Below are positions 3,475-19,607 of a stretch of 37,300 nucleotides of DNA, one piece after another. This DNA comes from a virus (Duplodnaviria; Heunggongvirae; Uroviricota; Caudoviricetes): IMG/VR virus record IMGVR_UViG_2925908680_000006. The stretch is one strand, 5' to 3'. The position numbers were made by a program, and so were the translations under genes. Below the pieces are notes generated by a model. The model saw only the letters and a list, made by a program, of their open reading frames with translations. It made no database searches and had not been told where the DNA came from. How positions within the stretch are numbered: position 1 is the stretch's first letter; the number at the start of each line of letters is the position of its first letter.

Positions 3475-4659
3475 ATGAGTGAAACTCGTTTTCATGGTGC
3501 CCGTGTTACGGAAAATACCGACCTGGTAACAGCGATTAACGATGTTGATTCCAGCGTTATCGGTATCGTGGCAACGGCGGATGATGCGGACGCGAAGCTG
3601 TTCCCGCTGAACAAGCCCACACTGCTGACCCGCGTCAATGACGTGCTGGGAAAATGCGGAACAACGGGGACGCTTTATCGTGCGCTTAAGGCCATCGCAG
3701 ACCAGGTGAGCACAAAGGTGATCGTCGTTCGCGTGGCTGAACACAAAGAAGAAGACGGAAAGACGCAGGATCAACTGGTTATCGGTGGTTCTGAGGATGA
3801 CGGCAGCTATACGGGGATGTATGCGCTGCTTGTTGCAGAGCAGGATGAAAGCATCGGATACCGTCCGCGTATTCTGGCCGCGCCGGAGCTGGACACGGAG
3901 GCTGTAACAAAATCCCTGTGCGTGATTGCAGGTAAACTGCGCGCGTTTGTGTATGCCTCATGTCACGGCTGTAACACGATGGCTGAGGCGATTACCTACC
4001 GCCAGAAATTCAACGAACGTGAGGTGATGCTCTTATGGCCGGACTTCATCGCCTACAACCCGAAAAGTGGCAAAAACGAAACGTTCCCCGCGCCTGCCTA
4101 TGCGTGCGGCCTTCGTGCGTACATTGACCATGAGCAGGGATGGCACAAATCACTGTCCAACGTTCCGGTTAAAAATGTGCTGGGGATGTCGAGGCATGTG
4201 TTCTGGTCGTTACAGGCCGAAGACAGTGATGCCAACAGCCTCAACAACAAAGAAATCACGACCATTATTCGTCGCAACGGGTTCCGCTTCTGGGGCAACC
4301 GCACACCGGAAACGAACGCCTACATCTTTGAGGTGTATACCCGAACCGCACAGGTGCTGGCTGATTCAATTGCGGAAGCGCAGTTTGAAACCATCGACAG
4401 TCCACTGACGCCTGCGAACGTGAAGGATGTTATCAGTGCCATCAGGGCAAAACTGGATTCACTGGTTACTGCCGGGAAACTGATTGGCGCGGAGTGCTGG
4501 TATGACGTGGTGGATAACAGCACCACGGATTTACGTCAGGGACGTGTGCGTATTCGCTACAAATATACGCCCGTTCCGCCACTGGAAGACATGGAGCTTT
4601 ACCAGACGTTTACTGATGAATACTTTGAACCCGCATTTGCGGTGCTGGGAGGTGCCTGA
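3475..4659 (+). CDS. FI: Tail sheath protein FI
   Basis: 394 aa; FPLNKP, LRAF, GWHK, RFWGNRT, YTPVPPLE motifs match remembered P2 gpFI. Confidence 0.92.
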   Translation: MSETRFHGARVTENTDLVTAINDVDSSVIGIVATADDADAKLFPLNKPTLLTRVNDVLGKCGTTGTLYRALKAIADQVSTKVIVVRVAEHKEEDGKTQDQLVIGGSEDDGSYTGMYALLVAEQDESIGYRPRILAAPELDTEAVTKSLCVIAGKLRAFVYASCHGCNTMAEAITYRQKFNEREVMLLWPDFIAYNPKSGKNETFPAPAYACGLRAYIDHEQGWHKSLSNVPVKNVLGMSRHVFWSLQAEDSDANSLNNKEITTIIRRNGFRFWGNRTPETNAYIFEVYTRTAQVLADSIAEAQFETIDSPLTPANVKDVISAIRAKLDSLVTAGKLIGAECWYDVVDNSTTDLRQGRVRIRYKYTPVPPLEDMELYQTFTDEYFEPAFAVLGGA

Positions 4660-5171
4660 TGGCTGTGCCAAAACATCTTCGCTTTTTTACGCTGTTTGTG
4701 GATGGTGAAAACGAAGTGGGTAAGGTGACGTCCGTCACTCTGCCTAAGCTGACGCGCAAAACCGACAGCTACCGGGGTGGTGGCATGATGGGGGCGGTAA
4801 GTATTGATCTCGGCCTGGACGACTCCGCGCTTGATGCGAGCTTTGTCATGGGGGGCGCAGTTCGTGAGCTGTTCCTTAAGTATGGCGGCACGATTGACGG
4901 CACACTGCTGCGTTTTGCGGGTGAATACTACACCGATGCAGAAAGCGACCTGTATGAAGTCGAAATGCGCGGACGTGTGACGGAAATTGATATGGGGGAA
5001 GCCAAACAGGGCGAAGCCACATCACACACTTATGCCATTAAAAACACCTACTACAAGCTGAGTGTTAACGATCGCCCGTTGTGGGAGATTGACCTGCTGA
5101 ACTTCATTTACCGGAAGGACGGCAAGGACATTGTGCCCGATCGCATCCGTTCCGCGCTTGGGCTTGGCTGA
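4659..5171 (+). CDS. FII: Tail tube protein FII
   Basis: 170 aa; start overlaps the FI stop (TGATG); size and position match P2 gpFII. Confidence 0.85.
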   Translation: MAVPKHLRFFTLFVDGENEVGKVTSVTLPKLTRKTDSYRGGGMMGAVSIDLGLDDSALDASFVMGGAVRELFLKYGGTIDGTLLRFAGEYYTDAESDLYEVEMRGRVTEIDMGEAKQGEATSHTYAIKNTYYKLSVNDRPLWEIDLLNFIYRKDGKDIVPDRIRSALGLG

Positions 5172-5225
5172 TAAGTAATATGCAGGCGGCGCAGTGCGTC
5201 GCCTCTGACTGAAAGGAGTTTCCTG

Positions 5226-5591
5226 ATGAAAGAGACGAAAAACATCGATACCGAAAACACGGTAGTTACTGACACTGTGAAAGAAACCAGTGAGCGTGGC
5301 GTAAAACTTACCCAACCAATTGAGCGAAGCGGCGAAAAAATCACGTATGTGGAGATCACCGGGGCTATTGAGCAGGCTGGATCTCTGCGAGATTTGTCGC
5401 TGTCTGATGTGCTGAGTCTGAAAGCGGAATCCATGTTTACGCTGCTGTCACGCGTGACATCACCGCGACTGGATGAAGTGACGATCAAAAAAATGGCATC
5501 CCGTGACTTTATTCAGTTATGTGTGGTTGCCGTAAATTTTTTGAGCGGTGCGGACTCTGGCGGGAAGAACGAACAGGCGACGGAAGCCTGA
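5226..5591 (+). CDS. E: Tail assembly chaperone E
   Basis: 121 aa between tube and tape-measure genes; contains the slippery site. Confidence 0.8.
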   Translation: MKETKNIDTENTVVTDTVKETSERGVKLTQPIERSGEKITYVEITGAIEQAGSLRDLSLSDVLSLKAESMFTLLSRVTSPRLDEVTIKKMASRDFIQLCVVAVNFLSGADSGGKNEQATEA

Positions 5592-5755
5592 TCACGGTTG
5601 TGTGCTTTGAGCACATAGAAGACTTTGTGGCAGATATTGCCGTTATTTTTAACTGGTCGCCCGCCGAAATCTTCATGATGACGCCCGGCGAAGTGGTTAG
5701 CTGGCGTGAGCGGGCGGCACTTCGCAGCGGGAATGCAGACAATGAAGACTCTTGA
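5226..5755 (+). CDS. E': Tail assembly chaperone E+E' (-1 frameshift product)
   Basis: The -1 frame is open from the TTTTTTG heptamer at 5538-5544 to 5755 and ends inside the tape-measure start. Confidence 0.7.
5538..5544 (+). other. Programmed -1 ribosomal frameshift slippery heptamer TTTTTTG
   Basis: T6G in frame N_TTT_TTG within E, with the -1 ORF open downstream. Confidence 0.7.
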
Positions 5756-8549
5756 TATCCGGGTCGCTTTCAGCGCCGTTGACAGGCTGACCCGACCTGC
5801 CGAAAACGCACGCCGCCTGATGGGGCAGTTTGGTGACTCCATCCAGCGAACGCAGGGGGCGATCAAAAATCTCGAGCGTCAGGCGCGTTCATTTGAGCGC
5901 GCCCGCGACGCTGTCAGTAAAGCGGATGCGGGTATCGTGAAAGCACGACGCCAGCTTAACGCCCTTAATCAGTTACAACGCACGGGTACAGTGCTCAGCG
6001 AAAAACAACAAAAGCTGATGCAGCAGTTAAGCACCCGGCTTGAACGCCTGAATGAATCGCGCACACGGGAAATTCAGAAAATGCGGGAGCTTGGCGGAGA
6101 GCTGAAACGCCACGGCATTTCCCTGACAGGCAGCGATAACACCATCCAGCAGGCCATCAGACGCACCGAACAGTACAACAACCAGCTTGAACGCGAACGG
6201 CAGGCGCTTGCGCGTGTAACGCGGGCGCGTGAGCGGTATTCGCGCGCGCAGGAAACAGCGGGAAAACTGAAAACAGGTGGTGCGCTGGCAATTGGTGCGG
6301 CAGCGGCGGGCGGCTATGCTGCCGGGCGTTTTTTGCAGCCTGCGATCGGGTTCGGGAAAGAGATGTCCCGCGTTCAGGCACTGACGCGAATCGACAAAAA
6401 CAGCCCGCAGTTTAAGGCGCTGCGTGAGCAGGCGTTAAAACTTGGCTCTGAAACGCAGTTCACCGCAGGCGATGCCGCCAGTGGGCAGGCATTTCTTGCA
6501 ATGGCTGGCTTCACACCGCAGGCCATTCAGGCTGCGCTTCCGGGCGTGCTGAGCATGGCAACGGCTGGCGGTATGGACCTTGGCGAGACGGCGGATATTG
6601 GCTCAAATATCCTGACGCAGTTCGGCCTCTCCGCTGACCAGATGGACCGGGTCGGTGACACGCTTACAGCAGCGTTTACCCGTACTAACACTGACCTTCG
6701 CGCGCTGGGCGAAACCATGAAATATGCAGGTCCGGTGGCGGGTAAGCTGGGAATATCGCTGGAGCAGGCCGCAGCGATGGCGGGCGTGCTGGCGAATATG
6801 GGTATCAGAGGGAGTGATGCCGGGACGGCAATGCGTGCCAGCCTGGCTCGTCTGGCATCACCGCCAAAGGCGGCAGCAGAGGCGCTGAAAGAGCTTGGCG
6901 TGTCTGTCTCGGATGCCGGGGGCAAAATGCGCCCGATGGAGGATGTGCTGGCTGACCTTTATAAAGCTACCCGCAAATACGGGGAAGTTGACCGGGTATC
7001 GTTCTTTAAGGACATTGCCGGAGAAGAGGCTTTCACATCATTTATGGCCCTCGTTGATGCGGCAGGTGACGGCTCCTTACCCAAACTGAGAAAAGAACTT
7101 GAAGGCGCGCGCGGTGAGGCTGAACGCACGGCAAAGGTTATGGCCAACAACCTTGACGGCGATCTGAAATCACTCAGCAGTGCATGGGAAGGGTTGCGCA
7201 TCCGCATTGCAGATCTGATTGACGGTCCGCTGCGTTCTGTCACGCAGTGGCTCACGCGTGTGGTATCAAAGGTGACGGCGCTGGCGCAGGCCCATCCCGC
7301 ACTGACGCGCCAGCTACTGATTGCAGGCGGCGCACTGCTGGCAATGACTGCAACGGTTGGCTCGTTGTCGCTGGCTATTGGTGTGCTTGCTGGCCCGCTG
7401 ACAAAACTGCGTCTTGGTTTTTCCCTCCTGACCGGATCAATGAATGCTGTCAGGGTTCTGCCAGCACTATGGGGAATGGTGACGGGTTCCGTTTCTTTAC
7501 TGGGAGGCGCTATCGGGGCGTTGTTCAGTCCGGTTGGTCTTATCGTGGCTGCGCTTGCCGGAGCTGCCGTTCTTATCTGGAAATACTGGGATCCCATCAG
7601 GGCATTTTTTGCCGGGGTGTTCAGCGGGATTATGGAAAGGCTGACCCCGTTGCGCGAAACCTTTGAACGGTTTGGTCCTGTTTTTGACGCAATCGGGAGT
7701 GGGATCAGCCAGGTGTTTAACTGGTTTAAATCGCTGCTGTCACCGATGGAGTCCAGCAAGGAAACGCTGGATAAATGTACCAGTGCTGGCGAGATATTCG
7801 GTAACGTTCTTGGCGGTGCGTTACAACTTGTTCTGACACCTGCAAAAATGTTGCTGGATACGCTGGCGTGGATACTTGAAAAGCTCGGTGTGCTTCCGGA
7901 TGAAGCGGAAAGGGCGCGCAAGAAAATCGAAGACGCACAGCGTGCGGCCATTCTTCAGGACAAGGTTGCCTTGCTTCAGGGGGACCTGGCGAAAATCAAT
8001 CCGCCGAAGCCTGTGGAAAATGGCAATGGCACCGGAGGTGATAAACCCAAAGACAACAAACCGCTCACAGACAGCAATACCGGTACGCTACGCAGACTCA
8101 GCAAAATTGCTGATAACACAGGTAAGCTGGTTGATGAGACGAAAAAACGTATTGGCCCCGGCGATATTGTCTTTAAGAACCTGCCCCGCGCACTTGCCGT
8201 TCGTGGGGAGTGGCAGGAGCGGAAGATTGCGCAGGTCAGTAAGCCTGCCCCCGCAATTAATATCACACCTGTGGTTCCGGCTCCGCTGCCTCCGGCGCTG
8301 GTCCCTGTTGTTGCGGCCAGCTCCCGCCCGGTGGCAGAGGCCATACGATCGCCAGTGGCATCAGTTCCTGCAACTTCCCGTAACCGGGAGCCTGTTGCCT
8401 GCGGATTTGGCGGTGAAATTCATGTTCATCTGCATAACGTTGTTACACAGAATCCCCGCGAACTGGCGAAACTGGTCGGTGAAATGGTCAGGGCAGAAAT
8501 GGAACGGCGCGCCCGTGCCGGGCGTGGCAGTTTTTACGATAAAGATTGA
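5733..8549 (+). CDS. T: Tail tape-measure protein T
   Basis: About 938 aa; coiled-coil N-terminus, Gly/Ala-rich hydrophobic middle; position after E/E'. Confidence 0.9.
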   Translation: MQTMKTLDIRVAFSAVDRLTRPAENARRLMGQFGDSIQRTQGAIKNLERQARSFERARDAVSKADAGIVKARRQLNALNQLQRTGTVLSEKQQKLMQQLSTRLERLNESRTREIQKMRELGGELKRHGISLTGSDNTIQQAIRRTEQYNNQLERERQALARVTRARERYSRAQETAGKLKTGGALAIGAAAAGGYAAGRFLQPAIGFGKEMSRVQALTRIDKNSPQFKALREQALKLGSETQFTAGDAASGQAFLAMAGFTPQAIQAALPGVLSMATAGGMDLGETADIGSNILTQFGLSADQMDRVGDTLTAAFTRTNTDLRALGETMKYAGPVAGKLGISLEQAAAMAGVLANMGIRGSDAGTAMRASLARLASPPKAAAEALKELGVSVSDAGGKMRPMEDVLADLYKATRKYGEVDRVSFFKDIAGEEAFTSFMALVDAAGDGSLPKLRKELEGARGEAERTAKVMANNLDGDLKSLSSAWEGLRIRIADLIDGPLRSVTQWLTRVVSKVTALAQAHPALTRQLLIAGGALLAMTATVGSLSLAIGVLAGPLTKLRLGFSLLTGSMNAVRVLPALWGMVTGSVSLLGGAIGALFSPVGLIVAALAGAAVLIWKYWDPIRAFFAGVFSGIMERLTPLRETFERFGPVFDAIGSGISQVFNWFKSLLSPMESSKETLDKCTSAGEIFGNVLGGALQLVLTPAKMLLDTLAWILEKLGVLPDEAERARKKIEDAQRAAILQDKVALLQGDLAKINPPKPVENGNGTGGDKPKDNKPLTDSNTGTLRRLSKIADNTGKLVDETKKRIGPGDIVFKNLPRALAVRGEWQERKIAQVSKPAPAINITPVVPAPLPPALVPVVAASSRPVAEAIRSPVASVPATSRNREPVACGFGGEIHVHLHNVVTQNPRELAKLVGEMVRAEMERRARAGRGSFYDKD

Positions 8550-8555
8550 GGAGTC

Positions 8556-9050
8556 ATGGCCATGATGATGATCTACGGCATGTTTGTTTTTGAGCTGCGC
8601 ACGCTGCCGCATCAGCAGTTACAGCAAAACAAAAGCTGGCGGCATGTGAAAAATGAACGCGTTAACCGTTCAGCAAGCTGGCAGTATATCGGTGCAGGTG
8701 ATGATCGCATCGTTCTTTCTGGTGTGCTTTATCCTGAAATTACAGGTGGCGAAGTGTCGCTGTCGCTGCTGACCACGCAGGCGTATACAGGACGACCCTG
8801 GCCTTTGATTGATGGCGTCGGGCAGATTTACGGCATGTATGTCCTGACCGGAACGAATACGACCCGTTCCGAGTTTGATCGCTACGGTAAGGCGAAAAAG
8901 ATAGAATTTTCACTGACCCTTGAACGCTGTGATGAGGATTTGCGGGAGCGCCTGCAATCCTCATCGTTCAGCGATATGCTGTCCGGCTTCAAAGATAAGG
9001 TGACATCATCTCTTAACAGCGCGGCCAGTTCAGTTAAAGGGCTGTTCTGA
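8556..9050 (+). CDS. U: Tail protein U
   Basis: 164 aa starting MAMMMIYGMFVF, resembling the remembered P2 gpU N-terminus; follows T. Confidence 0.8.
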   Translation: MAMMMIYGMFVFELRTLPHQQLQQNKSWRHVKNERVNRSASWQYIGAGDDRIVLSGVLYPEITGGEVSLSLLTTQAYTGRPWPLIDGVGQIYGMYVLTGTNTTRSEFDRYGKAKKIEFSLTLERCDEDLRERLQSSSFSDMLSGFKDKVTSSLNSAASSVKGLF

Positions 9051-9054
9051 TTTA

Positions 9055-9100
9055 ACACAAAAACCGCTAATGGTCAGATTAGCGGTTATTTTGTTTTCTG
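9055..9100. terminator. Bidirectional terminator between convergent U and invertase genes
   Basis: Perfect 10-bp stem aaccgctaat / attagcggtt (9062-9087) flanked by A/T tracts on both sides. Confidence 0.7.
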
Positions 9101-9673
9101 ACTCTTCTCTATTGTTCCGCTTGATTCTCCTGCGGGGTGGTAACGATAAATCGTCGATGTACCAATGCCGTAAATTATTGCCAGTTGTTTTCTGTCGTGA
9201 CCGTTTTTAATCAGCCTTGCTATTTGCTCATGCTGTTCTTTTGTCAGCTTCGGGCGACGTCCGCCTGTGCGCCCCCGTGCGCGCGCTGCTGCCAGTCCGG
9301 CCAGTGTACGTTCAACAATTAATTCACGTTCCATTTCAGCCAGGGCACCCATCACGTGGAAGAAAAAACGCCCCATTGGAGAAGATGTATCTATGCTGTC
9401 GGTCAGACTGCGAAAATTAATCCCTCGCTCCCGTAGTTCCCCGACGAGAGAAATCAGATGTTTCATGCTTCGCCCGAGGCGATCCAGTTTCCAGACAACC
9501 AGCGTGTCACCTTTTTGAAGGCGCTTTAAAGCGCGTTTTAATCCCGGTCGGTCTGTCTTTGTCCCGCTTAATTTATCTTCAAATATTTGTTCACATCCTG
9601 CACAAACAAGAGCGTTTCGTTGCAGGTCTGTATTCTGGTCATTTGTTGATACCCTTACATAGCCAATCAGCAC
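9086..9673 (-). CDS. gin: Serine DNA invertase (Gin/Hin/Pin/Cin family)
   Basis: LIGYVRVSTNDQNTDLQRNAL...GDTLVVWKLDRLGRSMKHL is near-identical to remembered Mu Gin; likely GTG start at 9673; C-terminal HTH. Confidence 0.93.
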   Translation of the reverse strand: MLIGYVRVSTNDQNTDLQRNALVCAGCEQIFEDKLSGTKTDRPGLKRALKRLQKGDTLVVWKLDRLGRSMKHLISLVGELRERGINFRSLTDSIDTSSPMGRFFFHVMGALAEMERELIVERTLAGLAAARARGRTGGRRPKLTKEQHEQIARLIKNGHDRKQLAIIYGIGTSTIYRYHPAGESSGTIEKSQKTK

Positions 9674-9727
9674 GCTGAATCTCCCGTCCAAAAGCGTAAA
9701 TCATGCCATGCAGGTCAGAAACGGCCA

Positions 9728-9766
9728 TTATCTAAAACCTCGGTTTACAGGAAACGGTAAACAGGG
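9728..9766. repeat. Left gix-type recombination site (inverted repeat)
   Basis: ttatctaaaacctcggtttacaggaa matches the Mu gix consensus; shares a 23-bp inverted repeat with 12767-12805. Confidence 0.85.
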
Positions 9767-10758
9767 CTGGTAACGCCGTGCAAAAAAATGGCGATACCTT
9801 GTCCGGTGGGCTTACTTTTGAAAACGACTCAATCCTTGCCTGGATTCGAAATACTGACTGGGCAAAGATTGGTTTTAAAAATGATGCCGATAGCGATACT
9901 GATTCATACATGTGGTTTGAAACAGGCGACAACGGCAATGAATATTTCAAATGGAGAAGCAAACAAAGCACCACAACAAAAGACCTGATGAATCTTAAAT
10001 GGGATGCTTTGTCTGTTCTTGTTAAAGCCCTTTTCAGCAGTGAAGTAAAAATATCGACAGTCAATGCACTGAGGATATTTAATTCATCTTTTGGTGCCAT
10101 TTTTCGCCGTTCTGAAGAATGCCTGCATATCATCCCTACACGAGAGAATGAGGGGGAAAATGGCAATATAGGGCCGCTACGCCCCTTTACGCTTAATCTC
10201 AGAACTGGTCGCATAAATATGGGGCATGGTCTGGATGTTACAGGAGATATAACAACTAACGCATGGGTGTACGCAAACCGCCTTGCAATTAACAGCAGCA
10301 CAGGCATGTGGATTCATATGCGTGACCAGAATGTTATTTTTGGACGTAATGCGGTATCCACTGATGGTGCTCAGGCTTTGCTCCGTCAGGACCATGCCGA
10401 CCGCAAATTTATGATTGGCGGTCTGGGAAATAAGCAATTTGGCATCTACATGATTAATAACTCAAGGACAGCCAATGGCACCGATGGTCAGGCGTACATG
10501 GACAATAACGGTAACTGGCTTTGCGGTGCGCAAATTATTCCCGGAAATTATGGCAATTTTGACTCACGCTATGTGAGAGATGTCCGACTTGGCACACGTG
10601 TTGTTCAATTGATGGCGCGTGGAGGGCGTTATGAAATAGCCGGACACGCACTTACCGGATTAAGGATTATTGGTGAAGTTGATGGCGATGATGAAGCTAT
10701 CTTCAGGCCGATACAAAAATACATCAATGGCATATGGTATAACGTCGCACAGGTGTAA
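9742..10758 (+). CDS. Alternative tail-fibre variable C-terminal cassette (no own start; fuses to H constant part after inversion)
   Basis: Reading frame continues from gixL as [33 protein letters not shown]..., matching the remembered C-terminal half of P2 gpH; ends ...[11 protein letters not shown]. Confidence 0.8.
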
Positions 10759-10761
10759 ATT

Positions 10762-11287
10762 ATGCAGCATTAAAAAATATTAAGTCTGGAAATCCAAAAA
10801 CAAAAGAACAATATCAGCTAACAAAGAATTTTGATGTTATCTGGTTATGGTCCGAAGACGGAAAAAACTGGTATGAGGAAGTGAAAACTTTCAGCCAGAC
10901 ACAATAAAGATTGTTTACGATGCAAATAATATTATTGTCGCCATCACCAAAGATGCCTCCACGCTTAACCCTGAAGGTTATAGCGTCGTTGAGGTTCCTG
11001 ATATCACAGCTAATCGTCGTGCTGATGATTCCGGTAAGTGGATGTTTAAGGACGGAGCTGTGGTTAAACGGATTTATACGGCAGACGAGCAACAACAACA
11101 GGCCGAATCACAAAAGGCCGCGTTACTTTCCGAAGCAGAAAACGTTATTCAGCCACTGGAACGCGCTGTCAGGCTGAATATGGCGACGGATGAGGAACGC
11201 GCACGACTGGAGTCATGGGAACGCTATAGTGTTCTGGTCAGCCGTGTGGATACGGCAAATCCTGAATGGCCACAAAAGCCTGAATAA
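10762..11287 (+). pseudogene. G: Tail-fibre assembly gene (G/Tfa-like), interrupted by two 1-nt frame disruptions
   Basis: ATG at 10762 hits TAA after 3 codons; conserved N-peptide [16 protein letters not shown] is in the -1 frame; body from about 10896 is in a third frame and ends ...[15 protein letters not shown]...PEWPQKPE. Confidence 0.5.
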
Positions 11288-11315
11288 AAATTAAGGCCCG
11301 ATAGCGGGCCTTGTT

Positions 11316-11845
11316 TCATTCTGGTTGTTCTGGAAACGTTACTGGCAGGCTGGAGGTGTCTGTGGATTCGACCTTCTGCGCATAGAGCATCCACTCGGTT
11401 AATTTTTGTTTATTCTCGTCGGAAATGATACCCAGCCGTAGCTGTGAGTCCCATAGCTGGGTTTTATCCCTGACAAGTTGCAACAGGCTTTGCTTTTCAT
11501 TCTCTGCCTGCTGCCTCTGTTCCTCCTCGGTATAAGTTCGCTTTATCACTACGCCATCTTTGAACATCCATTTACCCGAAATATCAGCCCGGCGATTTGC
11601 TGTAATATCAGGTAATTCAACGACGCTTGCGCCTTCCGGATTAATTGCTGAAACATCCTTTTCAATACAAATATAACGCGTTATGGTCATAGACCATTTT
11701 CAAAGTGTCTGGCTGGAAATTCTTTTGTTCTCATACCAGTTTTTTCCATCATCTGAATAAAGCCATTTGATGTTAAATTGCTTTGTTAGCTGGTATTGCT
11801 CTTTTGTTTTAGGGTTGCCAGCAGTAATGTTTTTAAGTGCATCAT
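11316..11845 (-). pseudogene. Second tail-fibre assembly gene (G'-like), interrupted by several 1-nt frame disruptions
   Basis: ATG-ATG at 11845 is out of frame with the conserved peptide [22 protein letters not shown]; in-frame TGA at about 11700; [17 protein letters not shown] readable only in an alternative frame; intact C-terminal body 11316-11690. Confidence 0.5.
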
Positions 11846-11847
11846 CG

Positions 11848-12792
11848 TTAAATACTCCCCGCGTTATACCACGTCCCATTAATGCAATACTGAATTGGCC
11901 TTGCCTGAGTTGTATCACTTAATTCATCACGGTTCCCGTAACTGAACCGTACGACATAACCTGACCTGTCAGACCAGGCCGGGGCCATTCCATGTCTGAA
12001 CAGATGACAGACCGCCAAGGCGAATACCTGTAATAACCTTGAGTTACATTCTGCCCGCGTATATGCACCAACATCTCCCGCAGAGGGTTTGCGGGTTGTG
12101 GTGTAAAACTCTGACCAGTCAGCTTCAAAGCCATAACCATCTCGCGCTGAACGATAATAAATACCGCCGTTCTTATAATTCACACGGAACTGAACCGCCG
12201 GGCAACTCCCCGCATTCATATTAAAGTGAAGAATCAATGTTGACGCTCCACTAATAGTCGCATCATAAACGCCGCTATTCCAGTTCCAGCCAACAGCTTT
12301 ATCATTGCAAACCCTGCTTCTGTTGCCTAAGCAATGCAGGCGGTGTTTTTACGTGTGTAGTCTCTCGCAGCCAGGAGAATAAACCATCACCATGGATAAT
12401 ATAGGTGAATTGGCGTTAGAATTCCGCCACCACTTGGACGTGCTCGGGTGGTAACGCGTTATGGTTCATTTTACGCCCGGGGGTTCCCCACCTCAATCAC
12501 GGCTCCGGCAGGCAGATATGTCCAAAACCGGGATTCCGTAAAACCTGTTTCTGGCATAGGACCATGAACCTTTACACATCCAGTATGGATGTCGGAAAGC
12601 TCGTTTCTCCAGCCACGAAATTAATGCAACTGTCGACCATCAACCTTGGAACCATCGATATCAGTCCTCGCCGCTAAATGCACGACAAAAGCCCCTGTGT
12701 CTTGTATTGAATTTATTTCTATTTCGGAATATCTGCACCTGCTTCTTGTTTCGTATGCCTCAGAAGGCCTGTTTACCGTTTCCTGTAAACCG
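11848..12792 (-). pseudogene. Degenerate alternative tail-fibre variable cassette (currently joined to the H constant part)
   Basis: Fibre-like C-terminus ...[17 protein letters not shown] at 11848-12237 is in a different frame from H, and 12238-12620 has no ORF of 60 aa or more in any frame. Confidence 0.5.
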
Positions 12793-14201
12793 AGGTATTC
12801 GATAACGGCAGCAACGGTCGATTTCGCAAGAATATCCCGCCCGACTTTTGTCAGGGTTGCCAGGCTGGCGACATCATTCCCCGTAAAATACGGAAACTTG
12901 TCTGCCGCAGTAGCAAGCCCGGCCAGCGCCGTCAGGGTGGCATCTTTCGGTTGCTTACCCGCAAGCGCGTTAGTCATGGTGGTCGCAAAATTCGGGTCGT
13001 TTCCCAGCGCCGCCGCTAACTCGTTCAGCGTATTCAGTGCGTCAGGTGACGAATCTACAAGGGCGGCAATCGCAGCCATAACGAAAGCCGTGCTTGCGAT
13101 TTGGGTATTATTCGTTCCCTGTCGCGCAGTTGGCGTTGTTGGCGTTCCGGTCAACGCAGGACTGTTTAAGGGCGCTTTCTTGTTCGTTTCATCCATTACC
13201 GCCTTAACCGCTTTCGATGTCGCGGCCAGTGTTTCAGACGTGCTGTTGGTGGCACTACTGAGCTGGACTATCCCTTTTTGTGCCGTCGTGGCGTCCTGAG
13301 CGGTATATTTTGCGTTAGCAAGGTCATACGCGGCCTTTACTGCTTTCGGCGTTGCAGCCTGCGTTTCAGACGTGCTGTTGGTGGCGCTACTGAGCTGGAC
13401 AAGGCCTTTTCGTGCCGTCGTGGCGTCCTGAGCGGTATATTTTCCGTTAGCCAGGTCATACGCGGCCTTTACTGCTTTCGGCGTTGCAGCCTGCGTTTCA
13501 GACGTGCTGTTGGTGGCGCTACTGAGCTGGACAAGGCCTTTTCGTGCCGTCGTGGCGTCCTGAGCGGTATATTTTCCGTTAGCCAGGTCATACGCGGCCT
13601 TAACCGCTTTCGGCGTTGCAGCCTGCGTTTCAGACACGCTGTTAGTGGCGCTACTGAGTTGAACAAAGCCTTTTGCGGTCAGCGAGGCGTCCGGGTGACG
13701 TCGTGACTGTTCATGCTCTTTCAGTTTGTCATCCACGTAATCCACTGTGGCCATCACCATGGTGTTATCCACGGTAAGCGCCACGGTGGCCGTGCTGGAT
13801 ACGGTCAGAATGGTGCGAAATGTTTGTGCACGACCGGACCCTTCAGCAACGGCTGGCTTGTAACTTTCGGCAGTATTGCCCACCGCGATTAAATCGCCGT
13901 GCTCATCAAATACACCAATTTCCCGGATCCAGAATCCGCCCGTTTCAGGAGGAATAACCAGCTCCGCAATAATGCGGTTCTGATGTGTTGCGTCCAGGAT
14001 GACGCGATTAACTGTGTGTCGCCACACCTCATGCACCAGACGGGTCTGCTTACTGTCTGGTGTGAGCAACGTGCCGCCACCGTCGCCCACGGCCATATGA
14101 GTCAGGCGAACAGGCTTACCATCTGGCGCGGCTGCCTGAGCTAATTTTTTGGCACCTGTATCGGTGATAACGGTTTTAAATTTTCGTGTTGTGGTACTCA
14201 T
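12621..14201 (-). CDS. H: Tail fibre protein H: constant N-terminal part (12793-14201) plus a short 45-codon tail in the present orientation
   Basis: N-terminal 470 aa match remembered P2 gpH including the QLSSATNS...TPKAVKAAYDLANGKY repeats; after the gixR-encoded GLQETVNR it reads PSEAYETRSRCR... and stops. Confidence 0.85.
   Translation of the reverse strand: MSTTTRKFKTVITDTGAKKLAQAAAPDGKPVRLTHMAVGDGGGTLLTPDSKQTRLVHEVWRHTVNRVILDATHQNRIIAELVIPPETGGFWIREIGVFDEHGDLIAVGNTAESYKPAVAEGSGRAQTFRTILTVSSTATVALTVDNTMVMATVDYVDDKLKEHEQSRRHPDASLTAKGFVQLSSATNSVSETQAATPKAVKAAYDLANGKYTAQDATTARKGLVQLSSATNSTSETQAATPKAVKAAYDLANGKYTAQDATTARKGLVQLSSATNSTSETQAATPKAVKAAYDLANAKYTAQDATTAQKGIVQLSSATNSTSETLAATSKAVKAVMDETNKKAPLNSPALTGTPTTPTARQGTNNTQIASTAFVMAAIAALVDSSPDALNTLNELAAALGNDPNFATTMTNALAGKQPKDATLTALAGLATAADKFPYFTGNDVASLATLTKVGRDILAKSTVAAVIEYLGLQETVNRPSEAYETRSRCRYSEIEINSIQDTGAFVVHLAARTDIDGSKVDGRQLH
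12767..12805. repeat. Right gix-type recombination site (inverted repeat)
   Basis: ttcctgtaaaccgaggtattcgataa; inverted copy of the 9728-9766 site. Confidence 0.85.
13230..13700 (-). repeat. In-frame tandem repeats of 123 bp (41 aa), about 3.8 copies, inside the fibre gene
   Basis: Repeated unit GxVQLSSATNSxSETQAATPKAVKAAYDLANGKYTAQDATTARK at protein and nucleotide level. Confidence 0.85.
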
Positions 14202-14203
14202 GC

Positions 14204-14734
14204 TTAATCGTCCGGATAAATGGTAATAACTTCACCGTCATAAGTTGCCGCCGCTGCGAAAATATCCCCCGGAATTTCCTGAATGATATTCAGCCCTGTC
14301 ATGTGGCGGCTGACCGGACGGGCATCAGCAATCAACCGCTCCATTTCCAGATACATTTCCTCCGTCACGCCACTGTCCAGTGTGCCGACTTCAACGGTAA
14401 ATGTTCCCGGTTCTCCGCCGAACTCCCACCACTCAGACACGCGAATGAGGTATCCCAGCGGCTCAATGGCCCTGCGCAGTGCGCTGATGGTCCCTTTGTG
14501 TCGGTGTATCAGCCATGCATCACGAATCACCTGTCGTTTTGTCTCTTCCGGCCAGTTGCGATCCCAGCGGTCAACGGAAAATGCCCAGGCGAGATAAGGC
14601 AGCAGGTGCACCGGGCAGGTGTCCGGCGACCACAGCGTGTTGAGGTCTACCGGGATGTCTGTAATGCGCGTTCCGACAGCTTCGGCACAACGCATGAAAC
14701 TGCTGGCTGATGGTGGTAACAGTGAATTACTCAT
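14204..14734 (-). CDS. I: Baseplate/tail protein I
   Basis: 176 aa from ATG at 14734; position and size match P2 gpI. Confidence 0.8.
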   Translation of the reverse strand: MSNSLLPPSASSFMRCAEAVGTRITDIPVDLNTLWSPDTCPVHLLPYLAWAFSVDRWDRNWPEETKRQVIRDAWLIHRHKGTISALRRAIEPLGYLIRVSEWWEFGGEPGTFTVEVGTLDSGVTEEMYLEMERLIADARPVSRHMTGLNIIQEIPGDIFAAAATYDGEVITIYPDD

Positions 14735-15623
14735 TGCGCCCACCTTCGCTGATGGTGAACGACTCACAGCGCGCCGCCTGTATGTCGCTGATGGCCATAT
14801 TCTGTGTGGGTTCGATTATCTCCACGCGTTGCACACCGTGCACATGCAGTGCGGCAGCAATGGCGGACAACGCCACGTCCTGACCGATAAGCCCCTGCTC
14901 AGCCAGCCACTTCCTGAACGACGATTCAGCCGCCGCCAGAATAGGTTCGGATTCCGGGCCGGGGTAAAAGTACAGTTTTGCATTCAGCCGCCATGTCACG
15001 ATTCTGGCGCTCTGTACAGTAAGGCGGTCGGCCACCGGGCGGGTATCCTCTGCATTCAGAACGGCGCGAACGGTATTAAGCAACGCCTCCGTTGCTGTGC
15101 CGTCGCCTTCAGTGGACAGGATGGAAACCGTCACATTTGCCGGAGACGGACTGATAGCCCGCGCATCACGCACCAGACCGCTGGCGCTGCGGGCAAAATA
15201 CTCGTATGCACCTGACGGGCCAGCAACACTCAGGCCATCGTACGCCCGCTGCGCCCGCAGTCTCAGCGAGGTGTCACTTTCCATCACTGCGTCGGTGGTA
15301 TCCGTTGCCGGAGTGATGGTCAGGCGCTTTGTGTTCATATTGCCCGCGAGGTTGTCCAGGTCTGTCCCGGCGCTGTGGCTTAACATGCAGGCGCGTGCCC
15401 CCTCATTGACCCGCTGGCGTAACAGCATTTCACGAAACGCTGTTGTCTGGGCGATAACGTTCAGGGGTTCCGATTCCAGCTCCAGCGCGGCGGAGACGGC
15501 TTCACGCTGTTCGGCGGGATAAGCCGCAATCATCATGGCCTTTGTGTCAGCCAGAATTGCCTCAAAGTCAGGCTCCGCGATGATGGCGGGTTCCGGTAAC
15601 TGGGAAAGGTCAACGGCGGGCAT
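14727..15623 (-). CDS. J: Baseplate assembly protein J
   Basis: 298 aa; size and position as P2 gpJ. Confidence 0.85.
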   Translation of the reverse strand: MPAVDLSQLPEPAIIAEPDFEAILADTKAMMIAAYPAEQREAVSAALELESEPLNVIAQTTAFREMLLRQRVNEGARACMLSHSAGTDLDNLAGNMNTKRLTITPATDTTDAVMESDTSLRLRAQRAYDGLSVAGPSGAYEYFARSASGLVRDARAISPSPANVTVSILSTEGDGTATEALLNTVRAVLNAEDTRPVADRLTVQSARIVTWRLNAKLYFYPGPESEPILAAAESSFRKWLAEQGLIGQDVALSAIAAALHVHGVQRVEIIEPTQNMAISDIQAARCESFTISEGGRNE

Positions 15624-15626
15624 GAT

Positions 15627-15977
15627 TTACTCCCTCAGCGTGATGGTTAACTCAACATTCTGCATGGTCTGCATGACAGTGCCCGACAGCGTCACCCCGG
15701 CGCGGCCTCCCGCTTTCCAGACAACGTCGATGGCATCCAGGGCAATGCGGGGTTCCCATCGTGTCAGCGCAATCACGGCAGCACTCATGCATTGCAGACG
15801 CGTGGTGTTATTCATGGGTTCGTCAATCAAATCAGGCACAAGGCTGCCATATTCCCGTCGCATAACCCGGCTTGCCAGCGGGGTGGTCAGGATATCCCTG
15901 ACTGACTGTTTCAGGTGCTCCATATCGTTCAGGTTTCCCGTCCCGTCCGGATTCATTCCTGTGTAGCGGGTTGTCAC
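15627..15977 (-). CDS. W: Baseplate protein W (gp25/GPW family)
   Basis: 116 aa; conserved position between V and J. Confidence 0.85.
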   Translation of the reverse strand: MTTRYTGMNPDGTGNLNDMEHLKQSVRDILTTPLASRVMRREYGSLVPDLIDEPMNNTTRLQCMSAAVIALTRWEPRIALDAIDVVWKAGGRAGVTLSGTVMQTMQNVELTITLRE

Positions 15978-16555
15978 TGCGGGCCTCCTGTCGAATCGCT
16001 GCCGCCTTTCACGCCACCGTGTTTATGCGTATGCACGGTAATGCCGTTTGAGGTGAAGTTGCCGCCGCTGTGCGTGATATTGCCGCTCATCTTTCCTCCT
16101 TTTGTGACGTCAAGCGTCGCCGTTCTCAGAAGGTTTGTGCATTCCACGACGGGCGTGTCCAGTTTCACGCTGACGGATGCCTGTAAAGTGGCCGTTTTCA
16201 TGCCGCTGGCGCTCAGTGCGCCTGCGTCCGCGTCGTAGCGGAACACCGCGCCGTCCGGCGCGCTGATCACGATTTCTTTCAGGCTTTTGCCGGGGGCCGG
16301 ACTGGCATCACTCCACAGGCTGCCAATTATCATGGCGGTTTCCGGGTTGCCGCCAATGCAGGCAATTACTACCTGTTCGCCTGGTGATGGCGGCAGCCAC
16401 ACATTGAAGGCTCCCGCGCGCGTGGTGTTCCAGCGCAGCCAGCCTGTTTCCAGTTCGCCGCTGCGAACGCGCACGCGCCAGGACTTCTCATCAACTTCAG
16501 AGATGATCCCGGTGCGGATGATATTGCTCAGCAGTCGCATGAGTTCTGCGCTCAC
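15974..16555 (-). CDS. V: Baseplate spike protein V
   Basis: 193 aa with Gly-rich C-terminus; position as P2 gpV. Confidence 0.8.
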   Translation of the reverse strand: MSAELMRLLSNIIRTGIISEVDEKSWRVRVRSGELETGWLRWNTTRAGAFNVWLPPSPGEQVVIACIGGNPETAMIIGSLWSDASPAPGKSLKEIVISAPDGAVFRYDADAGALSASGMKTATLQASVSVKLDTPVVECTNLLRTATLDVTKGGKMSGNITHSGGNFTSNGITVHTHKHGGVKGGSDSTGGPQ

Positions 16556-17187
16556 CGTACAGCCTCCGCAATCCGGCCCAGCACCGTGTTATAAATCAGG
16601 CGCTCATCTGCCTGGCTGATACCCAGCAGCTCACGTACCGGGTAATCGGTGAAAATGCCCGGCGCAACCTGATCGCGCTCACCGAACTGATGAACGCGGG
16701 CAATACGTGCGGCCACGCCGCTGTAACCCACCGTCACACCGGAAGCATCTGCACGGGCTTTCAGGTAGCGGGCGGTGCGCAGTTTTACGAACATGGGGAC
16801 GCGCTTTGTGCTGTCCTGGTTGATGCGCCGGGTGCGTATTTCCAGAAAACGGTCGATGTCATCCCGGTAAAACGTGCGGATATTGTTTTTATCCTCATCC
16901 CACCCGGTAATGGTTCGCCCGTATTTCCCCGTGTCGTGATGCCAGTTTTTCAGCGTGCGTGCTTCGTTATTCCAGATAAAGCGAATGCGTTCCTGTATCC
17001 GGGTTACGCGGCGTCTGCGTGGTGTCCACGCGGTCCCGTCCGGCGCTTTCTGTGACCGGATACGCGCCTGCTGGGCGCGGCGTAAATCCTGTGCCAGCTT
17101 TCTGGCGATGTTATTGATGGCCTGCTGATTCAGGCTGTCGCGGATGGCCTCAAAGGTTTCATCCACGCGGGTGAATGCCTTATCCAT
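16552..17187 (-). CDS. S: Phage virion morphogenesis / tail completion protein (S position)
   Basis: About 211 aa, between R and V as in P2; sequence assignment is weaker than for its neighbours. Confidence 0.6.
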   Translation of the reverse strand: MDKAFTRVDETFEAIRDSLNQQAINNIARKLAQDLRRAQQARIRSQKAPDGTAWTPRRRRVTRIQERIRFIWNNEARTLKNWHHDTGKYGRTITGWDEDKNNIRTFYRDDIDRFLEIRTRRINQDSTKRVPMFVKLRTARYLKARADASGVTVGYSGVAARIARVHQFGERDQVAPGIFTDYPVRELLGISQADERLIYNTVLGRIAEAVR

Positions 17188-17647
17188 CGCTTTCACCCCA
17201 CGTCACATCCTGGAATACATGCGACCAGTCGCCTTCGGAAGATGGCAGGCGGGGTTTTGGCTCCGGCAGGTGTTCTGCCTGCGGTGTGCCCTGACTGCTG
17301 CGCGTGATGCGAACGCGTTCCCGCAGGGGGAGCGTAAACAGGAGATCGGCGCTGTCATCGTCATTGATAACGGCGGAAAATTTGATGTCCTGATTACGCT
17401 CAGGGTTGAGCAACAACTGTGGCTGATTTTCGGATAACCACGCCAGCAGCGGCAGCGTGAGGTCGTCCAGCTCCCCGGCGTAATCCATGACAAACATCAC
17501 CATCTGATAGCGGTAAACAAACGATGGGGTTTCTCCGGTCGTTTCAATGTTGCCGCTCTCCACGAAAATGGTGAATTTTTCCGGGTTGGCCTGACACCAT
17601 CGGCATGAACGGGTCATGGCTTCACGCAGGGAATCAGTTTTCAGCAT
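17180..17647 (-). CDS. R: Tail completion protein R
   Basis: 155 aa; MLKTDSLR...FV..G....LL.P...AWL.ENQP resembles remembered P2 gpR. Confidence 0.85.
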   Translation of the reverse strand: MLKTDSLREAMTRSCRWCQANPEKFTIFVESGNIETTGETPSFVYRYQMVMFVMDYAGELDDLTLPLLAWLSENQPQLLLNPERNQDIKFSAVINDDDSADLLFTLPLRERVRITRSSQGTPQAEHLPEPKPRLPSSEGDWSHVFQDVTWGESDG

Positions 17648-17924
17648 GGTTGTTATCCTCGTTGTTCAGTCGTTGCAGCCTGCGCTGTTCCAGTAATTCA
17701 ATGGCCCGTTTATCCGCGTTACAGGTTTCCAGTGCATCCAGAAGGCGGTCGCCCCATATACCGAGATTTCCCCATGTGGGAGTATCAGGGAAGGGGGGAG
17801 GCGTTACCGGTATGGTCAGCGTCTGCGGTATAAGCCGGACTGACGGCGCTGGCCGTGGCGCGTTCTGCGTGCCTGCGCAGCCTGTCAGTAAAACGAGCGT
17901 CAGGCAAAGCGTGGGCGCATTCAT
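17634..17924 (-). CDS. lysC: Outer-membrane spanin lipoprotein (LysC/Rz1-like), embedded out of frame in lysB
   Basis: MNAPTLCLTLVLLTGCAG lipobox; Pro-rich; nested in the LysB coding region. Confidence 0.75.
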   Translation of the reverse strand: MNAPTLCLTLVLLTGCAGTQNAPRPAPSVRLIPQTLTIPVTPPPFPDTPTWGNLGIWGDRLLDALETCNADKRAIELLEQRRLQRLNNEDNNHAEN

Positions 17925-18192
17925 CTTTTGCAATATCGTTGCGTAGCTGTTCACGTCTTACCTCTCCGTCCTGATTGCGTTGCTGATTTTCCACGCGGAG
18001 TTGCGCCAGCACCTGCTGCATATCCTGTACCCCGGCGCTGATAATATTCAGGGTGTCGGCGGTACTTTTCAGGGTGCTGGCCTGCGCTTCGTTTCTGGCG
18101 TTCTCCCGGCCCAGCGACCACGACAGACGCATGGATGTTCCCCATCCGGCAATCAGAAGGAAAGCGACGCCCAGCGTGGGCCAGAGCTTCAT
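17785..18192 (-). CDS. lysB: Inner-membrane spanin (LysB/Rz-like)
   Basis: ATG at 18192 overlaps the endolysin stop (ATGA); N-terminal TM helix then coiled coil. Confidence 0.75.
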   Translation of the reverse strand: MKLWPTLGVAFLLIAGWGTSMRLSWSLGRENARNEAQASTLKSTADTLNIISAGVQDMQQVLAQLRVENQQRNQDGEVRREQLRNDIAKDECAHALPDARFTDRLRRHAERATASAVSPAYTADADHTGNASPLP

Positions 18193-18581
18193 GCCGGATA
18201 GGCTCCGTGTGGTAACTGAAAATGCGGTCCGTCTTTCAGGGTCTTCCAGTCGCCGCCCCATTCCACCGGAATATTCAGTTCCCGGCTGGCCTGTCTGAAT
18301 GCTGCTGCGATTTTTTCGTACAGCGGCCATTCCCATGACACCTGGCTGCCGACATAAGCCACAACATCCACGGCATGCCCCGTAAGGTGGCGGCTGTTCA
18401 TGGTCTGGCTCTTACCTGTGGCCACAAGTTGCTTCTGGCGGTAACGGCTGCGCAACCCTTCGGTGATACCAAAATCCACTTCCGAGATTTCCAGTGCCCG
18501 TCGGGTCACTTTCACCAGATCAGGATTTACGCCCTGCAAATTCTTTTCGCTCCGGCTGCTGAATTTAAATGTGTTGCTCAT
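18189..18581 (-). CDS. Endolysin, peptidase M15 (L-alanyl-D-glutamate peptidase) family
   Basis: 130 aa; SRHLTGHAVDV and DGPHFQL zinc-ligand motifs typical of M15 endolysins. Confidence 0.8.
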   Translation of the reverse strand: MSNTFKFSSRSEKNLQGVNPDLVKVTRRALEISEVDFGITEGLRSRYRQKQLVATGKSQTMNSRHLTGHAVDVVAYVGSQVSWEWPLYEKIAAAFRQASRELNIPVEWGGDWKTLKDGPHFQLPHGAYPA

Positions 18582-18901
18582 TCGTCCTTCTCCTTCACCC
18601 TGCGATTAAAGGCCGTAATAACCTTGTCGCGTGCTTTCTCTGCGCCCATAAAACCGATTGATGCGCCGATAAACGTCACGGCATCTTCAGGAAAACCGAA
18701 GAAGCGCAACGACCCGGCCACGGCCATGGCAAGAACGCCGCACGCCAGCGATCCCGTTACGGTCTGAACCAGTGTTCGTCCGTCATAAAGACTCATCAGC
18801 GCGGAAATGCTGACCGCCGCGCCTACTGCATACACCGTTGGCAGGTGGTCAAAGAGCCACGCAATAACCTGCTCTGTGATCCCTGTTTGAATGGTGCTCA
18901 C
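18578..18901 (-). CDS. Putative holin
   Basis: About 107 aa from GTG at 18901, right after the X stop; 2-3 hydrophobic helices and charged C-terminus; start uncertain. Confidence 0.6.
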   Translation of the reverse strand: MSTIQTGITEQVIAWLFDHLPTVYAVGAAVSISALMSLYDGRTLVQTVTGSLACGVLAMAVAGSLRFFGFPEDAVTFIGASIGFMGAEKARDKVITAFNRRVKEKDE

Positions 18902-18903
18902 TG

Positions 18904-19104
18904 CTACTCCCCCCACAACTGAATCATTTCTCGTTTCTTCTTCTCCGGCTCCGGCATCTCCACTTCCTGCCCGGCGTCCAGAAATACCTGCTGACAGAGT
19001 CCGGGGTTGGCATCCAGCACCTTTTCGGTGACACCCTGCGTCGTGCCGTAGTACCGGAAACAGAGCGAATCCACGGTGTCGCCTTCCAGTGCCTTCACTT
19101 TCAT
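18904..19104 (-). CDS. X: Tail protein X
   Basis: 66 aa; MKVKALEGDTVDSLCFRYYG...VLDANPGL resembles remembered P2 gpX; ATG overlaps the L stop. Confidence 0.85.
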   Translation of the reverse strand: MKVKALEGDTVDSLCFRYYGTTQGVTEKVLDANPGLCQQVFLDAGQEVEMPEPEKKKREMIQLWGE

Positions 19105-19607
19105 CAGCACAACTCCGCAAAGATTCGCGGGCGGCACAGAATGTCAGAGATGGCCCAGCTCACATCGCGCCACAAATCCGATGTCTGTATATCCAGTGCG
19201 TCCGCCCGGCGGTCGCCCTTGTCCGTTGTGTCCGCATCGCGGTAACGCTCCAGAATCAGGGCGCGTGTGGCGGTGTAAACCGCATTGCGCCAGTGCCAGA
19301 GATTGACGCTTTCTCCGTTAATTACGGGTGCCGGAACATCGGCCAGCGTCTGATGGCCAGCCGCCTGCTGTTCCTGCTGCCACGCTTCCAGCTCGCGGGT
19401 AACGTGTGCCACGGCCCCGGTGGCGGTATGCAGCAGGCGGGAGGTGGTCACACGGCCCGGCAGTCGTACCGCCAGACGCAGCTCACGCAGCACAATATCC
19501 GGCCAGAATGCACCTGCTGAAATACGGGTATCACCATCATCGGTATCGGTGATGTCGTCCTCTGCGGGTCCGGGGTTGGTTCTGGCAACCATACTCATGG
19601 GGTTCAC
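19104..19607 (-). CDS. L: Head completion/stabilisation protein L
   Basis: 167 aa; position and size as P2 gpL. Confidence 0.85.
   Translation of the reverse strand: MNPMSMVARTNPGPAEDDITDTDDGDTRISAGAFWPDIVLRELRLAVRLPGRVTTSRLLHTATGAVAHVTRELEAWQQEQQAAGHQTLADVPAPVINGESVNLWHWRNAVYTATRALILERYRDADTTDKGDRRADALDIQTSDLWRDVSWAISDILCRPRIFAELC

Follow-up and report, generated by a model that had tools for sequence, protein, structure and literature searches.

Does the prematurely terminated tail fibre of an E. coli prophage in CP024997.2 mark a host-range switch that has decayed on one side, or an error in the deposited sequence? The fibre gene ends inside a 3-kb segment that lies between two inverted 26-bp gix sites with a Gin-like invertase alongside. 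An earlier note on this DNA, of which we analysed a 37,300-nucleotide stretch (the window), had taken the prophage to look locked or biased, one of its two states being functional and the other decayed. Our analysis shows that the locus is a known Gin/G-segment host-range switch of the Mu-G/P1-C type in a P88-like prophage, and suggests that the truncated fibre is most probably an artefact of the assembly, perhaps one caused by mixed orientations or repeated cassettes.

Architecture of the invertible segment

The prophage was assigned to the P88-like group (Xuanwuvirus, P2-family) from its colinearity with P88 at 96.3–98.9% identity over positions 1508–9765, 13333–25860 and 27024–35480, and its gene set is P2-type. 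PADLOC returned no hits for the ORFs at 25913–27024 that are not shared with P88. ORFs and Pfam matches place two opposed sets of cassette and chaperone inside the segment and the constant N-terminus of the fibre outside it, a layout colinear with the annotated loci of Mu, P88, E110019 and ETEC4090. The features are as follows.

9086–9673, minus strand: Gin-family serine DNA invertase, 195 aa, GTG start, intact (Pfam Resolvase and HTH_7).
9430–9673, minus strand: putative Fis-dependent recombinational enhancer region near the 5' end of the invertase gene (predicted position).
9728–9753, minus strand: gixL, 26-bp recombination site, TTCCTGTAAACC-GA-GGTTTTAGATAA, with one mismatch to the Mu gix consensus.
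9754–10758, plus strand: Sv, the P88-type alternative C-terminal third of the fibre, silent here and intact (Pfam Gp34_trimer).
10762–11287, plus strand: U, tail-fibre assembly chaperone of Sv, broken in the deposit (Pfam Caudo_TAP on the 3' ORF).
11316–11845, minus strand: U', chaperone of Sv', broken in the deposit (Pfam Caudo_TAP).
11848–12779, minus strand: Sv', an ETEC4090-type allele joined to Sc at present, with ~56 small indels, densest at 12305–12772.
12780–12805, plus strand: gixR, 26-bp recombination site, TTCCTGTAAACC-GA-GGTATTCGATAA, with two mismatches to the Mu gix consensus.
12806–14201, minus strand: Sc, the constant N-terminal part of the tail fibre (P2 gpH-like; Pfam Phage_tail_fib and four Phage_fiber_2 repeats).

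Sc carries a 132-nt tandem repeat in 3.6 copies at 13201–13674. The segment is 87–94% identical in nucleotides to the Mu G, P7 C, D108 and P88 segments and is itself a mosaic, its Sv/U half being of P88 type and its U'/Sv' half of ETEC4090 type. The invertase, the sites, the cassette layout and this level of identity together bear out the earlier description of a Gin-type invertible tail-fibre segment.

Recombination sites and invertase

When up to three mismatches to the Mu gix consensus were allowed, exactly two matches were found in the 37.3-kb window, where shuffled sequences led us to expect none; they are the two inverted gix-like sites that had been proposed. Both share the same central dinucleotide, GA, and lie in the arms of a 45-nt inverted repeat (9724–9768 and 12765–12809; 91% complementary), and the gixR sequence is the same in E110019, EC361 and ETEC4090. 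The presence of just two sites at this threshold bears on the reading that the locus is a multi-site, shufflon-like system of the p15B Min type, whose fragments would be extra partial cassettes between internal crossover sites. Internal inverted repeats of 159 and 158 nt (71–73%) do occur between the chaperone genes, as such a system would have, but they amount to the U and U' genes themselves, which are homologous, and the fragments are colinear with single intact genes of relatives, which leaves a shufflon-like arrangement extremely improbable.

The invertase matches the Mu Gin structures 4M6F and 3UJ3 with E values of about 1e-100 and has strong Pfam scores (Resolvase, 1.3e-50; HTH_7, 9e-14). 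Ser9, whose role in Gin-type catalysis has been described (PMC3575834), is aligned and present. Residues 1–113 differ from Gin at a single position, R39K, while the C-terminal DNA-binding domain departs from Gin after about residue 114. In the Gin-type family the enhancer lies ~100 bp from one recombination site (PMC3798978). Because the 5' ~250 nt of the invertase gene are about 99% identical to Mu gin, a Fis-dependent enhancer is very likely conserved in this part of the gene. Since the invertase, the site cores and this enhancer-bearing 5' region are intact, nothing indicates locking.

Reading frames in the two orientations

As deposited, the fibre ORF spans 12621–14201 on the minus strand and encodes 526 aa. 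Its stop lies 52 codons inside gixR, that is, 47 codons beyond the end of the 45-nt repeat and close to the 45 codons given previously, so the reported truncation is seen in the deposit. The remainder of the joined cassette (11848–12620) is likewise broken in every frame, as had been described, and the 526-aa product was found on one contig only, CP024997.2. On the other side of the segment, Sv differs from E110019 by one substitution and no indels. In-silico inversion at the GA cores joins Sc to Sv in frame to give an 808-aa fibre, in which 760 of 764 residues are identical to P88 gp39.

The claim that this opposite cassette is intact therefore holds for Sv, which is open, but not for its chaperone. 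U carries two 1-nt homopolymer deletions, at about 10770 and 10884, that now place a stop at codon 4; apart from these, it shows no difference from the intact 175-aa gene that E110019 and P88 carry. U' carries four such deletions, at 11673, 11679, 11730 and 11830, and has no substitutions relative to the intact 177-aa gene of ETEC4090. The damage is not confined to one cassette, as the earlier note had it, and extends to both chaperones. With U and U' both frameshifted, neither orientation of the sequence as deposited would be fully functional.

These observations bear on the possibility of real decay, in which the Sv'/U' side, and U in part, would have become pseudogenes, the fibre would be truncated in the present orientation and only the flipped state could infect. 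The frameshifts and the 526-aa ORF do stand in the public record and were kept into its second version. However, the chaperone of the supposedly functional cassette is broken as well, so that a picture of one good and one bad state fails on its own terms.

A tract of small indels ending at gixR

To count differences, the tract was aligned pairwise, with a low gap penalty, to the closest allele; a MAFFT alignment of 12290–12770, which gave ~35 indels and more substitutions, was superseded by this procedure. Against near-identical prophages, the 2 kb at 10745–12805 contain 62 small indels and 12 substitutions, whereas the 10,358 bp outside the tract (flanks and the silent Sv), compared with the same references, contain 1 indel and 4 substitutions. 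The flanks alone differ from ETEC4090 by 3 substitutions and 1 indel in 9.35 kb, and Sc at 12806–13200 by 1 substitution and no indels. Comparison with P88 revealed no gaps across 12.5 kb on the right and only compensating gaps elsewhere.

Nearly all of the indels (57/62) are 1 nt long and 41 of the 62 change the length of a homopolymer, many at runs of just 2–3 bases. The tract starts at 10770, 1 kb inward from gixL. Over more than 900 bp (11300–12239), a single substitution relative to ETEC4090 is accompanied by 9 homopolymer indels, and homopolymer compression of this interval renders it identical at 670 of 671 positions. At 12240–12779 the same comparison gives 507 matches, 10 substitutions and 56 gap columns. 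Indel density climbs toward gixR, reaching ~10% beside it, close to the rate of errors in one raw long read, and the final indel, at 12772, lies 8 bp short of the site. Three genes in the tract are hit, each by at least two independent frameshifts, while the remaining prophage genes are all intact.

A search for the same lesions in 5,426 complete E. coli genomes found none, the closest match being 93.5%, and they are absent from all 699 genomes that carry the cassette. Thus neither the excess of substitutions over indels nor the sharing of lesions by descent that characterises pseudogenes was found, and together with the indel-to-substitution ratio and the concentration of repeated hits in three genes, this makes real decay very unlikely. 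A mutator background was ruled out by the single indel in 10.4 kb outside the tract. It is also very unlikely that the 62 indels are real in another sense, as the product of a localised, indel-dominated mutational process that affected one side of the invertible segment, stopped at a recombination site and destroyed Sv', U' and U while sparing the rest of the prophage; we know of no mechanism for such a process.

The indel profile almost certainly fits an unpolished long-read consensus rather than evolution, as judged from its composition: the lesions are mostly 1 nt long, two thirds affect homopolymers, and they fall in three genes of one public record, which argues for consensus error and against evolutionary decay. 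We consider it highly probable that the locus is functional as a host-range switch and that the truncation and fragmentation reflect consensus errors at 10770–12772 and not a biological state. The claim that one state is decayed and the prophage locked or biased is therefore unsupported, given 62 indels to 12 substitutions in a sequence otherwise identical to its relatives. In the literature, we found CP024997 cited only as the source of an stx2e A-subunit sequence, and nothing on the sequencing method.

Orientation among relatives and possible origin of the indel tract

Among complete E. coli genomes, 65 carry the segment in the orientation of the window and 62 carry it flipped. The P88 segment is flipped relative to flanks that are 99.7% identical, and strains 2022S01-140 and 2022S01-140-18 differ by inversion. 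The E110019 assembly holds both orientations of one prophage, the other-orientation copy being a spare 25-kb 'extrachromosomal' contig. This prophage family really switches. A comparable artefact within this family is the spare contig of E110019.

In the proposed mechanism, the minus-strand late operon (V-W-J-I-H) would be transcribed through Sc (14201–12806), across gixR and into the adjoining cassette, so that in the assembled orientation Sc reads into Sv' and chaperone U', and after inversion it would be joined to Sv and chaperone U, giving a P88-type receptor-binding end. Inversion would follow the established Gin mechanism: invertase dimers bound at the two inverted gix sites would synapse with the enhancer, which Fis would occupy near the 5' end of the invertase gene, cleave at the identical central GA, rotate by 180 degrees and religate. 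The errors probably reflect failed polishing of the tract, either because the culture that was sequenced contained both orientations or because the same cassettes were present elsewhere in the genome. An even mix of orientations and the presence of repeats have both been documented to make polishing fail and to leave errors densely clustered (PMC9980784).

The first of these sources would make the tract a footprint of active switching: with a near-balanced mix of orientations, reads would be clipped or conflicted at gixR, few would remain and the segment side would stay unpolished. The rise of error density toward gixR, the stop 8 bp short of it and the intact invertase system are consistent with this, as are the published polishing mistakes at a 50:50 fim-switch mixture (PMC9980784) and the E110019 assembly, which yielded a 'frameshifted' fibre along with its spare 25-kb contig of the other orientation. 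The tract, however, stops short of gixL. A test for a chimeric consensus at 12300–12779, in which mismatches of the window were compared with the base predicted by the mirrored position of the flipped orientation, was not significant, with agreement at 26/68 for the window base and at 22/68 for the reference base at offset 0; other offsets were similarly noisy, and most of the 'mismatches' scored here are indels under gap-friendly alignment. In addition, P1/D6-like plasmids and further prophages in pig E. coli carry these Sv'/U' cassettes too, so that short reads would map ambiguously there, and this alternative cause agrees equally with where the tract ends. We therefore regard a switching footprint as a plausible source of the consensus errors, but hold it only tentatively.

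Implications

Since Mu and P1, fibre switches of the Gin type have belonged to textbook knowledge, and prophages of the P88-like group that carry them are already known, deposited and annotated. The biological weight of the locus is therefore small, the type of switch being long established. Neither the truncated fibre of 526 aa nor the lack of chaperones in CP024997.2 should be taken as prophage decay or a locked host range. Where a 'complete' genome shows densely clustered indels that end at a recombination site, they serve as a warning that the locus may be repeated or actively switching. The host-range determinants of P88 have been assigned to fibre residues 716–746 (PMC5285337). As these residues fall within the invertible cassette, P88-like phages would have a second, unexamined host-range state.

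Comparison with known systems

The locus has the same layout, Sc-gix-Sv-U-U'-Sv'-gix-invertase with a 3.0-kb segment, as Mu (G/Gin), P1 and P7 (C/Cin), D108, SfMu and D6, and its segment is 87–92% identical in nucleotides to those of Mu, D108, SfMu, D6 and P7. Its gix sites are 1–2 nt off the Mu consensus and have the GA core in common with Mu. Unlike the Mu-like and P1-like phages, the element that hosts it is a P2-family (Peduoviridae) prophage, and its constant part is of the P2 gpH fibre type, with repeats of 44 aa.

The closest comparison is with P88 (Xuanwuvirus P88), with which the window is colinear at 96–99% identity over ~29 kb when the segment is left aside; the deposited P88 sequence has the segment flipped and contains one 132-nt fibre repeat fewer. 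ETEC4090, E110019, EC361 and phage 503458 are P88-like relatives of the window prophage, and the records of P88 and this group share its invertase and segment, for which they already give the annotations 'DNA invertase', 'tail fiber protein' and 'tail fiber assembly protein'. Compared with P88 and the P88-like prophages, the indel tract is present in the window alone. In this respect the window would match polishing failure at loci that are heterogeneous or repeated in long-read bacterial assemblies, of which the fim switch is an example (Wick et al. 2023, PMC9980784): its small indels, mostly of 1 nt and largely at homopolymers, are densely clustered and bounded by a recombination site in an assembly that is clean elsewhere.

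Organization of the invertible locus

The window holds a P2-family prophage (Xuanwuvirus, Peduoviridae) that is colinear with Escherichia phage P88 at 96.3–98.9% identity over positions 1508–9765, 13333–25860 and 27024–35480. Its proteins match exactly those of NCBI CP024997.2 (GCA_002804345.3), a 5.17-Mb E. coli chromosome that served one preprint as the source of an stx2e A-subunit gene. The invertible locus is located between a tail gene block on the plus strand and an operon on the minus strand. A search of the whole 37.3 kb with the Mu gix consensus, allowing up to 3 mismatches, returned exactly two sites where none is expected by chance; a multi-site shufflon was rejected on this count.

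Features of the locus and of the stretch beyond the portal gene
Up to 9050, + strand: tail genes T and U (gpU, distinct from the chaperone U)
9086–9673, − strand: serine invertase of 195 aa with Resolvase and HTH_7 domains
9728–9753, − strand: gix site (gixL), TTCCTGTAAACCGAGGTTTTAGATAA
12780–12805, + strand: gix site (gixR), TTCCTGTAAACCGAGGTATTCGATAA
16555 through to the fibre gene, − strand: operon V-W-J-I-H
25913–26437, − strand: Ead/Ea22-like ORF

Both gix sites lie within a 45-nt inverted repeat (91% complementary) and carry GA as the central dinucleotide. The adjacent invertase aligns with the Gin sequences of the crystal structures 4M6F and 3UJ3 at E ~1e-100, differs from Gin by one conservative change in residues 1–113, and is encoded by a gene whose first 250 nt are ~99% identical to Mu gin. 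It retains Ser9, the residue that makes the covalent link to DNA and without which Gin is inactive (PMC3575834). In this invertase family, ~100 bp separate the Fis-dependent enhancer from one of the recombination sites (PMC3798978). The earlier note's description of two inverted gix-like sites beside a Gin-like invertase is thus borne out.

Elsewhere in the prophage, the stretch 25860–27024 beyond the portal gene has no P88 counterpart and is possibly a variable cargo spot; besides the Ead/Ea22-like ORF, it encodes a 196-aa ORF (26434–27024, − strand) with no match in Pfam or PADLOC. An N6/N4 DNA methyltransferase ORF on the minus strand (1–807) is cut off by the window's left edge, outside the P88 homology that starts at 1508, and could be prophage-end cargo or part of a neighbouring element.

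Fibre gene and cassettes as deposited

The fibre ORF (12621–14201, − strand, 526 aa) passes gixR and stops 52 codons further on, the truncation that the earlier note had reported, and its product turned up on one contig only. The plus-strand cassette (9754–10758) is open, and in-silico inversion of 9741–12792 yields the full-length fibre foreseen there, a protein of 808 aa that is identical to P88 gp39 at 760 of 764 positions and has one additional 44-aa repeat unit. This unit belongs to a 132-nt tandem repeat (44 aa, Pfam Phage_fiber_2) that occupies 13201–13674 of the constant fibre part in 3.6 copies; compared with the window, P88 lacks one unit and the related prophage ETEC4090 has an extra one, so that fibre length varies in whole units among near-identical prophages.

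The damage exceeds one cassette, as both chaperone genes are frameshifted. U (10762–11287, + strand), the chaperone gene of the supposedly intact cassette, has lost one T at ~10770, which leaves ATG CAG CAT TAA, and one A at ~10884, while U′ (11316–11845, − strand) carries four 1-nt deletions. Four of these six isolated deletions fall inside a 159-nt inverted repeat (10762–10920/11687–11845) made up of the conserved 5′ portions of both genes, and the other two are within 15 bp of it, a clustering that fits errors in repeated sequence.

Lesion profile of the probable error tract

Every gene is intact in the close relatives E110019, EC361, ETEC4090 and P88. Over 9,351 bp of flank, ETEC4090 and the window are separated by 3 substitutions and 1 indel. 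They also share the U′/Sv′ allele, and the two prophages are practically the same element. The Sv/U allele common to the window, E110019 and P88 shows 1 substitution and no indels in 9754–10760.

Differences inside and outside the probable error tract
Error tract 10745–12805: 2,061 bp, 62 indels, 12 substitutions
Outside the tract (flanks and Sv cassette): 10,358 bp, 1 indel, 4 substitutions

The tract indels comprise 40 deletions and 22 insertions; 57 are of 1 nt and 41 are homopolymer length changes. They begin at 10770 and end at 12772, 8 bp short of gixR. Against ETEC4090, 11300–12239 shows 1 substitution and 9 indels (670/671 identical after homopolymer compression), and 12240–12779 shows 507 matches, 10 substitutions and 56 gap columns, a roughly 10% indel error that is about that of a single uncorrected long read. 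Elsewhere, the window aligns to P88 with 0 gaps in 12.5 kb and otherwise only compensating gaps in divergent stretches, and the remaining prophage genes are all full length. None of 699 complete E. coli genomes with this cassette has the lesions; the closest is 93.5% identical, the shortfall being explained by indels.

In natural decay, substitutions far outnumber indels, and runs of 2–3 bases are not struck dozens of times per 2 kb. The excess of indels in the tract is the opposite of a pseudogene profile, and real decay of the cassette is accordingly very improbable. A mutator background was also rejected, since it would have affected the flanks, which are nearly clean. Lesions that are indel-heavy, homopolymer-biased and confined to one tract have the pattern of consensus error, and an assembly artefact is the most likely source of the 'truncating orientation' and the 'decayed cassette'. 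The contrast drawn previously between a functional and a decayed state fits the fragmentation of the deposited sequence but is not supported for the element, given this profile and the frameshifted U.

Such error clusters have been attributed to balanced structural heterogeneity and to repeats, in which ambiguous short-read mapping leaves residual long-read errors uncorrected (Wick et al. 2023, PMC9980784). Either or both could apply here. Mixed orientation would fit the position of the tract, which adjoins gixR and increases in error density towards it; repeats would fit the presence of the same cassettes in pig E. coli, both on P1/D6-like plasmids and within other prophages. A check for a chimeric consensus of both orientations scored 26/68 matches for the window base and 22/68 for the reference base, a near-equal split that singles out neither. 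The E110019 assembly offers a telling parallel. It contains one prophage twice (records NZ_CP035755.1 and NZ_CP035751.1), as a flipped chromosomal copy with the fibre annotated 'frameshifted' and as a linear record of 25 kb, labelled 'extrachromosomal', that has the window orientation. The copies are 99.9% identical aside from the inversion, and the 25-kb record is probably an alternative-orientation contig rather than a real replicon.

Switching in relatives and proposed mechanism

The deposited P88 sequence has the segment in the flipped orientation, between flanks 99.7% identical to those of the window, and in a set of 5,426 complete E. coli genomes the locus occurs in the window orientation 65 times and flipped 62 times. 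Strains 2022S01-140 and 2022S01-140-18 (records NZ_CM125670.1 and NZ_CM125663.1), apparently parent and derivative, have opposite orientations in prophages 99.8–99.9% identical, with essentially the inversion alone distinguishing the locus, which suggests switching on laboratory time scales. With both orientations in relatives and the invertase, GA cores and presumed enhancer region intact, there is no sign of the locked switch proposed earlier.

The sequence shows the anatomy and in-frame fusions, and we infer the operation by analogy with what is established for Gin and Hin (PMC3575834, PMC3798978). Late-operon transcription would run through the constant fibre part Sc (14201–12806), across gixR and into the neighbouring cassette, so that the fibre would be Sc-Sv′, paired with chaperone U′, in the assembled state and Sc-Sv, paired with chaperone U, once Gin has inverted the segment. 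An invertase dimer would bind each gix site and a Fis/enhancer invertasome would form, followed by double-strand cuts at GA, 180-degree subunit rotation and religation.

Sv is the receptor-binding end of P88, whose host range is set by fibre residues 716–746 (PMC5285337), and these residues are part of the invertible cassette. That host-range study uses neither 'invert' nor 'inversion', and the alternative fibre state in P88-like phages thus appears uncharacterised.

Comparison with known invertible segments

The segment is a mosaic of P88/E110019 type (9754–11299) and ETEC4090 type (11300–12779), the U′/Sv′ alleles of which differ by up to ~30% in places; such mosaicism is ordinary for tail-fibre cassettes. 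At the sequence level, the locus has the features of a Gin/G-segment switch, very likely including a conserved enhancer. The switch is real, and it is already known. Public phage and genome records contain the locus with annotation, and the segment shares 87–94% nucleotide identity with its invertible counterparts in Mu, D108, SfMu, P7, D6 and P88.
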